In this document: one piece after another, positions 9,989 to 12,540 of the stretch
How the letters are laid out: every line of letters begins with the position of its first letter
Position numbering within the stretch: position 1 is the stretch's first letter
IMG/VR virus record: IMGVR_UViG_3300013307_000018
Span: 16,312 to 80,311 of that record
Direction: 5' to 3' (one strand)
Length of the DNA stretch: 64,000 bases
From: a virus
Taxonomy: Duplodnaviria > Heunggongvirae > Uroviricota > Caudoviricetes
Translations under genes and position numbers: made by a program
The notes under the pieces: model-generated
Seen by the model: only the letters and a program-made list of their open reading frames with translations
What the model was told of the DNA's origin: nothing
The model's database searches: none

Positions 9989-10063
9989 AGTACGTGTTTC
10001 CTTTTAGTGGACCGGTTAATTAGGGGTGTGTATTTCAATGAGCACTCGTAAATGCCCAGTGAA

Positions 10064-10089
10064 ATACGGGAGACATGCGTCTCCCGTAT
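10064..10089 (-). terminator. 11-bp perfect hairpin after adhesin gene
   Basis: ATACGGGAGAC-atgc-GTCTCCCGTAT, weak U tract. Confidence 0.4.
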
Positions 10090-10098
10090 CCTTATTGC

Positions 10099-12264
10099 TT
10101 AGAAGCCAAAGCCAATGCCCGCACCGGCAACGGCATCAGAGTCGTTAGAGAAACCGACAGATGCTTTTACCTGTACATTAGGACGGATGTTGGCACCGAC
10201 ACCTACGGCCAGCGCAGTACGGTCTTTAAACTGACCGATACCCGCACCGACTGTCATGACCTGGCCTGGAACAACCGGAATGTTGGCCATTGCGGCAACA
10301 CTTGCAATACCAGAACGGTATTCTTTCTGGTCGTCAGAACGGTTACGATTTACTTCAGAACGCAGGTTGCCAACTTGCTGATCGGTATAACTCTTCGACT
10401 GCTGCAGCGTACGGGTGCTGGAGTTGTTGATGTTATTATTGATGATCTGGTTGTTGGTGTTGTAGATATCCTGGAACTGGTAGTAATCGTTGCTCAGGTT
10501 AGAGATGTTCGTTTCATTGTTAGTGATACGGGTCTCATGGTTGTTCAGTACCTGGGTGTGGTTGTTCACCACCTTCTGCGTGGCTTTGATATCACCGGTG
10601 TTCTGAGTGATACGGGTTTCGTGGTTAGCCACCACAGTCTCAGTCGCAGTGATGCGATTGGTGTTAGACTGCGTTTGCTTCACGTTGTTGTTCAGTACGA
10701 CGTTGGTGTTCACCAGGTCGTTCTGGGTTTTCTGGATCTGTTGGGTGTTCTGGGTAGTACGGTTATCCAGATTGACGATATCATTACCGTTTTTCTGGCC
10801 CATACCGACCGCAACGTCAGCGGTGTTTTGCGCATTGATTGCCGTGTTCTTGGCGTCCTGGCCGATGGCAACCCCTGCGTTAGCAGTTTGCTGTGCGTTG
10901 TATGCGTCGTTAATACCCTGCTGACCCAGACCTACTGCAACATCGGCAGTGTTCTGTGCGTTCACTGCTTTGTTGTAGCCGGCATTGGCCACGTTGCTGA
11001 CGTTCGCGATATCGTTGGTGTTTTTGTTCACCTGAGATGACACGCCGTCTACACGGGTGTTGATGTTGGTGCGATCAGTATCAACAGTGTTTTCCAGTTT
11101 GTCAGTGCGGGTTTCCACACGACCTACCTGACCCGCTACACTTTCCAGACCGGTCTGCAGGTCACGTTGGCCTTGCTCAACACCGTCTAAACGCACGGCG
11201 TTGTTCTGGCTACGTGTGTCCGCTACAGCCGCCACTTTCTCAACATCGGAGATATGTTGCGCATTGTTGGCGACACCGGCTTCAACACCATCCAGACGAA
11301 CTGCACCTTTCTGGATTTCCTGCGTGTTAGCATCGATACGCACGTTCTGTGCTGCGTCGACTTTACCTTGCTGTGCCTTATTGCTAGCAACCGTGCCAGA
11401 CAGGTTGTTCAGGTTGGTCTGCAGACCACCGATGTCTTTGGTGTTCTGTGCCGTTTTGCCTTCCACTGAGGTCAGACGACCATCAACAGCTTTGTTCACG
11501 CCAGCCTGTGCTTTGTTGCTCGCATCGACTTTGCCGTTCAGCAGGTCAACTTTGATGTTGGCTGCGGTACCCAGTACCACACCCGCCGTACCGGTTGCCT
11601 GTGCAACAGCTACGCCATGGGTCAGTGCTTTGGTGTCAGCAGCAGTTTGCTTAGCCAGATTGCTCACACGATCGTTTAACGCGGCATCGCCTGCATCGAT
11701 TTTGTTATCGAGGTTGGTGTACGCCGTTTTACCCTGCTCAACCAGACCGTCGATACGACCGGCGGTGGCGGCATTGGTGTTGTCGATTTTGTCGTTGAGT
11801 TGACCGGCTACTGCAGCACCGGTTGCGGCCAGGTCATTGACTTTACCGTTCACGCTACCGATAGCATCCGCATTGGCTTTATCGCCAGCGATACGAGCAT
11901 TGGTTTCTGCCAGCAGACCCGCTTTGGTTTCACTCACACCCACCAGTGCTGAATTCGCTTTACCAATGGCTGCGTTCGCCGTGTCCAGCGCATTGCCTGC
12001 TGTGGCACGGCCTTCAACAGCGATGTCGAAGGCTTGGCCGGCTTGCAGTTTGGTGTCGTTCAGTTTGTAGTTGGTGTTGGTCAAATCCGTTTTCAGACCA
12101 GCGATGTCTTTGGTGTTGGTGCCGACCTGACCCTGGAGGTTTTTGATGTCGGTGCTGTTTTGCGTGGTATGGCCAAACAAATCAATATCGATATCGAGTA
12201 AGGTAGCGTGGGACTGAGAACTGAATACGGCGGCCACGGCAAAAGCGAGAATACTTTTCTTCAT
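10099..12264 (-). CDS. trimeric autotransporter adhesin-like protein (721 aa)
   Basis: Signal peptide MKKSILAFAVAAVFSSQSHA; long Asn/Thr/Gln-rich repetitive stalk; C-terminal YadA-type anchor ...MANIPVVPGQVMTVGAGIGQFKDRTALAVGVGANIRPNVQVKASVGFSNDSDAVAGAGIGFGF. Confidence 0.8.
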   Translation of the reverse strand: MKKSILAFAVAAVFSSQSHATLLDIDIDLFGHTTQNSTDIKNLQGQVGTNTKDIAGLKTDLTNTNYKLNDTKLQAGQAFDIAVEGRATAGNALDTANAAIGKANSALVGVSETKAGLLAETNARIAGDKANADAIGSVNGKVNDLAATGAAVAGQLNDKIDNTNAATAGRIDGLVEQGKTAYTNLDNKIDAGDAALNDRVSNLAKQTAADTKALTHGVAVAQATGTAGVVLGTAANIKVDLLNGKVDASNKAQAGVNKAVDGRLTSVEGKTAQNTKDIGGLQTNLNNLSGTVASNKAQQGKVDAAQNVRIDANTQEIQKGAVRLDGVEAGVANNAQHISDVEKVAAVADTRSQNNAVRLDGVEQGQRDLQTGLESVAGQVGRVETRTDKLENTVDTDRTNINTRVDGVSSQVNKNTNDIANVSNVANAGYNKAVNAQNTADVAVGLGQQGINDAYNAQQTANAGVAIGQDAKNTAINAQNTADVAVGMGQKNGNDIVNLDNRTTQNTQQIQKTQNDLVNTNVVLNNNVKQTQSNTNRITATETVVANHETRITQNTGDIKATQKVVNNHTQVLNNHETRITNNETNISNLSNDYYQFQDIYNTNNQIINNNINNSSTRTLQQSKSYTDQQVGNLRSEVNRNRSDDQKEYRSGIASVAAMANIPVVPGQVMTVGAGIGQFKDRTALAVGVGANIRPNVQVKASVGFSNDSDAVAGAGIGFGF

Positions 12265-12470
12265 TTTGATTATTCCTGTTATTACGATTATTGTTAAGCC
12301 GGTTATGGGGATTCATAACGCAGCGGGTTTTTCACTACTACTATCAACTCTGTAATATGTATTTGTCTTTTTTTCATTTCACGTTTTTAACGATGGCGAT
12401 AATATGTACAACAATGGTGTTGTGCAATATCGAACTGCTTGTAGAAGCATCCTTATTTGTGTGTATCTTT

Positions 12471-12497
12471 TGAGGGGGTAAAACCCCTCGTTTTTTT
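12471..12497 (+). terminator. plus-strand-oriented intrinsic terminator
   Basis: GAGGGGG-taaaa-CCCCTC followed by GTTTTTTT on plus. Confidence 0.45.
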
Positions 12498-12540
12498 CCG
12501 TCGGCGGCATAATTGGGAGGCAATGCCTCCCAATACGGTG

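Follow-up and report, generated by a model that had tools for sequence, protein, structure and literature searches.

The sequence analyzed here (the window) is a 64-kb stretch of a Caudoviricetes genome, positions 16,312 to 80,311 of IMG/VR virus record IMGVR_UViG_3300013307_000018, and our subject is an adhesin gene on its minus strand together with the intergenic sequence on either side. The open reading frame (ORF) occupies window positions 10099..12264, starts with ATG and encodes 721 amino acids (aa), beginning with MKKSILAFAVAAVFSSQSHA and ending with AGAGIGFGF; the long antisense ORFs across this stretch simply reflect its skewed composition. A stem-loop (10064..10089, minus strand) with 11 perfect pairs and a 4-nt loop lies 10 nt past the stop codon. 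The gap on the 5’ side (12265..12540) is exactly 276 bp long and has a GC content of 39.1%, compared to 50.5% for the window. The locus is bounded upstream by a 114-aa gene of unassigned function (12541..12885, minus) and followed on its 3’ side by a gene for an AAA-family ATPase (8561..9988, minus). An earlier interpretation made from the letters alone (the sequence-only reading), which did not name the strand, described a 721-aa product, an AT-rich gap, a perfect 11-bp hairpin and a phage-like setting, all of which are present as described, and proposed that the product is a complete trimeric autotransporter adhesin (TAA).

Sequence comparisons and predicted structures confirm a complete TAA-type (type Vc) protein by its anatomy. 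The YadA-type membrane anchor (aa 661–721; 10102..10284, minus) has four β-strands (670–719) and a C-terminal Phe, and matches Pfam PF03895 (YadA_anchor) at aa 670–721 with 41.3 bits, against a curated cut-off of 22.7. Among solved structures, the YadA anchor 2lme was the sole significant sequence match, both for the single sequence (E = 4e-4) and for a family profile made from six homologs (E = 2.4e-6). An AlphaFold2 monomer model of the last 120 aa (602–721) has a mean predicted local confidence (pLDDT) of 75 and consists of one long helix (2–59, model numbering) and four strands (69–78, 81–93, 96–105 and 110–118). A Foldseek comparison of this model with the PDB gave five significant matches, all to TAA anchors (Hia, 3emo, 2gr7 and 2gr8; AtaA, 9vnj; YadA, 2lme), with E-values from 9e-8 to 1e-4 and a probability of 1.0 for all five; a tail-fiber fold was absent from these significant matches. 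The anchor that the sequence-only reading had recognized is thus borne out by profile, solved structure and fold, and its argument that the protein is not a tail fiber agrees with a C-terminal model that matches TAA anchors only; neither of the outcomes that it had named as refuting it occurred.

The C-terminus (...GIGFGF) is aromatic, as it is in the homologs from loci L003 and L004 and from the Erwinia phage Yoloswag. A C-terminal aromatic residue is the β-signal of outer-membrane proteins for the β-barrel assembly machinery (BAM). Homologs of the Rivsvirus type (L006 and L002, the latter being phage pEa_SNUABM_5) end in ...SIGN (in full ...GMSIGN), without the terminal aromatic residue expected of a BAM substrate. 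At the other end of the protein, aa 1–20 (12205..12264, minus) form a predicted Sec signal peptide, which the sequence-only reading had also named; by heuristic criteria the n-, h- and c-regions are recognizable as MKK, a hydrophobic core of 12–13 residues (mean Kyte-Doolittle hydropathy 2.32) and S-H-A followed by T, and an equivalent N-terminus is found in all aligned full-length homologs.

The passenger between these two parts (aa 21–660; 10285..12204, minus) is predicted to be almost wholly α-helical, with a variable distal and a conserved proximal half. N (14.0%), A (12.9%), T (10.6%), V (9.0%), G (8.2%) and Q (7.9%) make up much of it, and Cys and Trp are absent. The full-length monomer model shows the signal-peptide helix, a helical passenger (aa 39–660) with breaks near aa 161–164, 237–246, 326–345 and 488–495, and then the four strands at 670–719. 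A hydrophobic periodicity of 3.5 is present in several passenger segments, along with four [ILV]xxN[T]xx[ILV] motifs, and the family profile has weak matches to the trimeric coiled-coil fibers of a SadA fragment (2wpr), reovirus sigma-1 and P22 gp26, as well as to Lpp. An NCBIfam search of the adhesin gave nothing meaningful beyond coiled-coil noise. The repetitive stalk of the sequence-only reading stands as a predicted fibrous helical passenger but not as a match to a Pfam stalk model, and of the three YadA families that it proposed to search, the anchor was matched while the head and stalk were not. By the accepted definition the anchor alone is common to all TAAs, and a globular head is typical but not universal; since only the anchor is shared by all, the lack of a head is compatible with TAA membership, and we regard the protein, on its sequence and model, as a ‘headless’ TAA variant. 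A stretch at aa 430–495 (NAQNTADVAVGLGQ... repeats) was considered as a YadA-head-like β-roll; it has no Pfam support and is modeled as helix, and is left as a suspicion.

Near the predicted tip, the motif (K)L(T/Q)AGQAFDIAVEGRATAGNAL (aa ~72–93; window ~11986–12051) is almost invariant between the window protein and database relatives P0005, P0007 and P0009–P0015. These are distant and much shorter phage TAAs that are otherwise only ~27% identical to the window protein, and the motif is a candidate functional or connector element.

Six full-length proteins were aligned (the window protein, those of three IMG/VR contigs, Yoloswag gp261 and the pEa_SNUABM_5 protein). All six have the anchor and begin with a signal-peptide-like segment, and across homologs of 44–67% identity all three parts of the protein are retained. 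Among database relatives a comparable N-terminus occurs in 15 of 16 (P0016 lacks it) and PF03895 is recorded in 13 of 16. Three relatives (P0002, P0008 and P0012) share the stalk repeats (NAQNTADVAVGLGQ...) with no PF03895 on record and end in ...GTYRFK, ...TYSFGR and ...GTYRLQ, respectively; their C-terminal anchor may be divergent or of another kind. In the alignment, conservation is strong at aa ~397–721, in contrast to a variable distal half; a comparison of the window protein with L003 gives 47% aa identity for the N-terminal (distal) half and 88% for the C-terminal (proximal) half. The ratio of nonsynonymous to synonymous substitution rates (dN/dS) is 0.09 for L003 versus L004 (728 codons, dS 0.6) and likewise 0.09 for the C-terminal half of the window protein versus L003, and the gene is therefore judged functional. 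By these sequence measures the adhesin homologs are under purifying selection, with the tip evolving fastest.

A tblastn search detected relatives of the adhesin in 76 genomes of catalogued phages, and the window protein matches PHROG 17426 (‘adhesin’) at 2e-55. A HMMER search run exhaustively over 1.84 billion cluster representatives returned 3 sequences at E ≤ 1e-30, 49 at ≤ 1e-10 and 596 at ≤ 1e-3, while two pattern-limited scans of 185,579 representative bacterial genomes (one with the protein, one with the family profile) gave no relative and no bacterial donor. As far as seen, the close family is small and phage-borne. The uncultivated viral contigs IMGVR_UViG_3300028585_000023 and 3300013104_000001 have the closer relatives (54–60% best-segment identity), and the ‘putative autoagglutinating adhesins’ of Erwinia jumbo phages, Yoloswag gp261 (AQT28733) and the pEa_SNUABM_5 protein (QQO90415), are 44% identical. 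These contig and Erwinia phage homologs cover 96–100% of the window protein and share with it the signal peptide, helical stalk, YadA anchor, post-stop stem-loop and small non-structural neighbor genes. The window protein does not have the N-terminal GGxGGL(I/V)NI repeat block seen in the proteins of Yoloswag and of the Rivsvirus type. More distantly, phiEco32 gp119 (‘agglutinating adhesin’) and small YadA-like proteins of Kuravirus, Proteus, Aeromonas and Salmonella phages have an anchor that is 39–45% identical over the last ~100 aa. Like the window protein these are encoded in early or non-structural regions, but they are much shorter (265 aa in phiEco32) and align over the anchor and proximal stalk only.

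A non-structural setting recurs in unrelated phages. The gene for phiEco32 gp119 lies among small early genes and the relative in Bue1 (Ackermannviridae) among genes of DNA metabolism; loci L009 and L010 show the same kind of setting. The genes for P0003 and P0013 are on phage contigs, adjoining DNA polymerase, methylase and small ORFs. The yadA homologs of virulent phages (phiEco32, Salmonella cluster 3, Pectobacterium My1 and cyanophages) were flagged in 2013 as putative adhesin/virulence genes (PMC3728262), and the crystal structure of EibD (2xqh) has its source listed as Enterobacteria phage P-EibD (PMC7247746). PMC8065619, citing Sandt et al. 2002, describes the Eib immunoglobulin-binding TAAs as encoded by E. 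coli prophages. The sequence-only reading called such a product unusual for a phage, which the 76 phage genomes, PHROG 17426, the 2013 literature and prophage-encoded EibD show to be overstated; the adhesin was correctly identified, but its kind is already known and annotated in phages.

EibD resembles the window protein in being a phage-borne TAA with a coiled-coil stalk and a YadA-type anchor that is exposed on the cell harboring the phage genome. The Eib proteins differ in having a YadA-like head and in being encoded by lysogenic-conversion genes of temperate lambdoid prophages, whereas the carrier of the window adhesin looks like a virulent phiKZ-related jumbo phage and its gene has an early-type promoter and no detectable head; PDB sequence searches with the adhesin (single sequence and profile) gave no significant match to EibD. 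Bacterial YadA, Hia and AtaA share the anchor, by sequence and fold, and the plan of signal peptide, fiber and anchor; the window protein lacks their head and neck domains. Other phage gene products are sent to the host envelope and not to the virion, including Llp of T5, which is made early and blocks the receptor, and Lom and Bor of lambda. The latter two are listed in PMC8065619. All three are functional analogies, being a small lipoprotein and 8-strand barrels unrelated in sequence or fold to the proposed ~90-nm trimeric fiber.

The boundaries of the adhesin unit can be drawn from L008, a 278-kb IMG/VR jumbo-phage contig that is colinear with window positions 259..19975 over 21 genes (27–75% aa identity; 40% for the 114-aa gene) and has no adhesin. 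In L008 the homolog of the 114-aa gene ends at 9761 and the ATPase gene starts at 9998, with 236 bp between. Window positions 12535..12336 align with L008 9762..9955 at 71% identity over 206 nt, and homology resumes ~35 nt before the ATPase start codon. Given these alignment edges, the cassette spans ~10027..12335 (about 2.3 kb). It has a 71-nt 5’ leader that is absent from L008 (12265..12335, minus) and contains a ribosome-binding site (AGGA, 12274–12277); the ORF and its hairpin come next, and a tail of ~37 nt (10027..10063, minus) reaches to the approximate start of L008 homology (TAATTAAC...AAGGAAA...ATG). Outside the cassette, 12336..12535 (minus) constitutes an ancestral intergenic region with two stem-loops (~12513–12533 and ~12472–12489) followed by promoter elements. 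The ATPase gene of the phiKZ-related Ralstonia phage RP31 also sits directly behind the promoter motif described below; with this promoter-ATPase order in two relatives (L008 and RP31), the most parsimonious account is an insertion of the adhesin cassette, in the window’s lineage, between an ancestral early promoter and the ATPase gene.

The comparison of flanking genes, which the sequence-only reading had proposed as a check, shows the adhesin gene to be a true indel, an insertion relative to the colinear L008. In contrast, the 276-bp AT-rich region cannot be counted as part of the unit as a whole, since ~200 bp of it is a conserved ancestral terminator-promoter region that serves the ATPase in relatives. 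Measured against the usual marks of a moron (an accessory cassette acquired independently), the adhesin shows presence/absence between colinear genes; a terminator-like hairpin is inside the cassette, and the sole supported promoter candidate is in the ancestral region outside. Base composition is not distinct (GC 52.2% for the ORF vs. 50.5% for the window). As evidence of a promoter belonging to the cassette itself, a sigma-70 scan was rejected: it gave 3 matches where 3.0 are expected, and the best (12297..12269, in the leader) overlaps the ribosome-binding site. A metagenome scan with the ATPase yielded one 2.4-kb fragment only, which starts inside the gene and is thus uninformative about the insertion.

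As RNA, the hairpin behind the adhesin folds with –22.2 kcal/mol (z = –5.8; none of 200 shuffles folds as well), and a stem-loop stands right after the stop codon in every adhesin homolog. In L003 and L004 the stem-loop leads into a T-run. The window hairpin is followed only by ATTTCAC, a weak T tract that would allow some read-through, and leaky termination with transcription into the ATPase gene is plausible from the sequence. Elsewhere in these phages, GC-rich terminator-like hairpins precede T(T)TATGC(C/T)G and not a plain T-run (window 12508–12537; L008 9762–9790; L003/L004 ~9850–9880; RP31, locus L014, 5790–5818), and this may be a clade-specific terminator signature for phage RNA polymerases.

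In the ancestral region, 88 nt upstream of the adhesin ATG, lies a phiKZ-type early-promoter motif, ATATTACAGAGTTG (12345..12358, minus), preceded by an A-rich tract. The core ATATTAC occurs 11 times in the window (4.8 expected), with eight copies on the coding strand; seven of these eight are in intergenic gaps, 10–172 nt upstream of gene starts, in a sequence that is 90% coding. The extended form ATATTACNNNNNTG (ATATTAC-N5-TG) is present in seven copies where 0.35 are expected, a number reached by none of 100 shuffles. All seven (52553–52566, 42408–42421, 36846–36859, 27293–27306, 24395–24408, 20002–20015 and 12345–12358, minus) lie on the coding strand, each preceded by an A-rich tract, and six are intergenic, just upstream of genes; the copy at 27293–27306 is inside an ORF. 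ATATTAC-N5-TG also stands directly upstream of the ATPase genes of L008 and RP31 and of the adhesin homologs in L003 and L004. It matches the published early-promoter cores of phiKZ (TATATTAC) and 201phi2-1 (...TATATTACDWHDGTG) (PMC7058600). RP12 and RP31, both related to phiKZ, have the two sets of phage RNA polymerase; their early genes are transcribed by the virion enzyme, and they replicate even with rifampicin present (PMC5468394).

By sequence, the seven copies resemble a set of early promoters as in a phiKZ-related phage, and they could serve for mapping early operons across the window. From the motif we infer that the adhesin is now an early gene. ATATTAC-N5-TG was the only general motif among the promoter candidates tested; ACATATTA and AAACGTGAAAT, which were also considered as general promoter elements, are not enriched window-wide and represent locus-specific conserved sequence.

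Nearly all ORFs in the window are on the minus strand. PHROG matches in the window include an exopolysaccharide (EPS) depolymerase, an RNA ligase and two paralogous AAA ATPases. Megablast of the locus plus 24 kb of the window against catalogued phages gave no match, and the phage is therefore new at the DNA level. The ATPase downstream of the adhesin is 43% identical to ORF203 of phages RP12 and RP31 and also matches many Klebsiella, Serratia and Pseudomonas jumbo phages. The two ATPase genes (8561–9988 and 32578–33702, minus) belong to phrog_35110 and phrog_14322, each matching the other’s family, and homologs occur in a wide range of jumbo phages, among them phiKZ-like Pseudomonas phages. 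The RNA ligase homolog (phrog_548) is at 25427–26392 (minus), and RP31 has an RNA ligase gene a few genes 5’ of its ATPase gene. A tRNA-Ser gene (GCT anticodon) is at 15155–15231 (minus). An SPFH/Band-7 protein (31520–32479, minus; Pfam PF01145, E = 1.5e-29; ‘lipoprotein’ in PHROGs) is probably another phage protein targeted to the host membrane. The PADLOC defense library had no match for the adhesin or neighboring genes.

The EPS-depolymerase homolog (52634..54580, minus; phrog_4250, E = 8e-221) does not cover the initial ~126 positions of its PHROG profile. Four other jumbo-phage lineages have a depolymerase homolog beside or near the adhesin: the L003 and L004 adhesins are immediately downstream of one that is 49% identical to the window’s, with a terminator and the promoter motif standing between them, and in Yoloswag and pEa_SNUABM_5 the two genes are 6–8 kb apart, with the depolymerase upstream, whereas in the window they are ~40 kb apart. 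The association is recurrent but positional only. A module of co-secreted adhesin and depolymerase was considered and dropped, as the EPS depolymerase has no signal peptide.

We judge it probable, with some reserve, that the gene encodes a type Vc fiber of a phiKZ-related jumbo phage, carried as a cassette behind an early promoter, and that the fiber is exported by the host and remodels the surface of the infected cell. Early transcription in phiKZ-type phages is carried out by a virion-packaged RNA polymerase. In the proposed course of events, transcription would start at the ATATTAC-N5-TG promoter soon after infection; most transcripts would end at the strong hairpin behind the ORF, with some continuing into the ATPase gene. 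The pre-protein would pass through the host Sec system with cleavage of the 20-aa signal peptide, and the host BAM complex would build three C-terminal four-strand units into a 12-strand barrel. The helical passenger of roughly 620 residues would then emerge as a headless trimeric coiled coil with an estimated length of ~80–90 nm (some 590 helical residues at 0.15 nm each), so that the fiber would remodel the cell surface while the host envelope machinery still works.

What the fiber would do there is the part on which our confidence is lowest. The most likely role appears to be a steric or receptor-masking coat against further phage adsorption, including the wasteful re-adsorption of progeny; such an exclusion role is ranked first because it fits the early timing and the absent head, ahead of agglutination or adhesion, with a part in the virion or in lysis unlikely. 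Agglutination, in which the fiber would attach the infected cell to neighbors or surfaces and large, slow-diffusing progeny would be freed beside fresh hosts, strikes us as a doubtful though arguable case. It is the usual function of the family, homologs are named ‘autoagglutinating adhesin’ in databases, and PMC7568254 describes autoaggregation as common among TAAs. The fast-evolving distal half (47% identity vs. 88% in the proximal half, window vs. L003) would suit a ligand-binding tip, and the near-tip AGQAFDIAVEGRATAGNAL motif is common to distant phage TAAs. However, the same source treats TAA autoaggregation as homotypic and mediated by globular heads; no head was detected in the window protein, and uninfected neighbors would not bear the adhesin.

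To a virion component, that is, a tail fiber or whisker whose C-terminal domain only looks like a YadA anchor, we give a very small probability. PHROGs 17426 and 26246 are filed under ‘tail’, and virions of a cyanophage contain a ‘YadA domain-containing structural protein’ (PMC9146016), so that some proteins with this domain may have a structural role; the closeness of the adhesin to the EPS depolymerase (adjoining in L003/L004, 6–8 kb off in Yoloswag and pEa_SNUABM_5) and the weak profile matches to the trimeric viral fibers sigma-1 and P22 gp26 go in the same direction. Yet a terminator and promoter part the two genes in L003/L004, the window gene has an early-type promoter and small non-structural neighbors, the homologs conserve a cleavable-type signal peptide, and the anchor fold matches outer-membrane TAA anchors only, with the terminal aromatic residue typical of outer-membrane proteins; moreover, tailed-phage virions assemble in the cytoplasm. 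Equally improbable, in our estimate, is that the product is an accessory of lysis or outer-membrane disruption, or that the gene is a functionless passenger gained by recombination. The coiled coil has a weak likeness to XhlA and hemolysin models and the gene is dispensable in the relative L008, but the XhlA and hemolysin matches do not reach the threshold, the adjacent genes include neither a holin nor an endolysin, and the promoter is of the early type. Strong purifying selection (dN/dS 0.09) and the retention of all three parts at 44–67% identity also speak against this rival. In the searched literature there was neither a study of what a TAA does in a virulent phage nor virion proteomics covering the Erwinia phage adhesins.

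Several points weigh against a host-exported early fiber of a phiKZ-related phage. The signal peptide was judged by a heuristic and the structure models are of the monomer only; the full-length model is of weak confidence (pLDDT 64, predicted template-modeling score 0.24), although its secondary structure is still clear. The adhesin has no match to Pfam YadA_head, YadA_stalk or Hep_Hag, with none of the head models reaching even E ≤ 1. Polarity of the indel depends on one close relative and one distant outgroup. The early timing comes from a motif match, the RNA-polymerase genes being outside the 64-kb window, and the tie to phiKZ consists of one ATPase (43% to RP31), the shared intergenic architecture and matches to phiKZ-like phages. 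Finally, the depolymerase adjacency in L003/L004 and the ‘tail’ filing in PHROGs could point to a role in the virion.

A broader version of the host-exported fiber, which we put forward tentatively and consider rather less than probable, is that of a phage-restricted lineage of headless TAAs: the cassette would move among the early-promoter slots of phiKZ-related and other jumbo phages and, via Sec and BAM, coat the cell within minutes of infection with ~90-nm fibers that act as a steric shield for superinfection exclusion or a tether to neighboring hosts.

As a finding of genome annotation alone the adhesin is ordinary, with ‘agglutinating adhesin’ annotations present in phage genomes since phiEco32. 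What is added here are the exact cassette boundaries, the captured phiKZ-type early promoter and a natural adhesin-less relative, which make the function testable; as a discrete indel with such a relative, an apparently early promoter and purifying selection, the locus is a clean test case. If the protein is indeed displayed on infected cells, virulent jumbo phages would use the outer-membrane assembly of the host to rebuild its surface during the latent period, a surface conversion by a virulent phage via type V secretion, which as a mechanism has not previously been demonstrated experimentally. This would bear on superinfection exclusion, on phage spread in biofilms and on plant surfaces, and on safety annotation of therapeutic phages, in which ‘adhesin’ is often flagged as a virulence factor.

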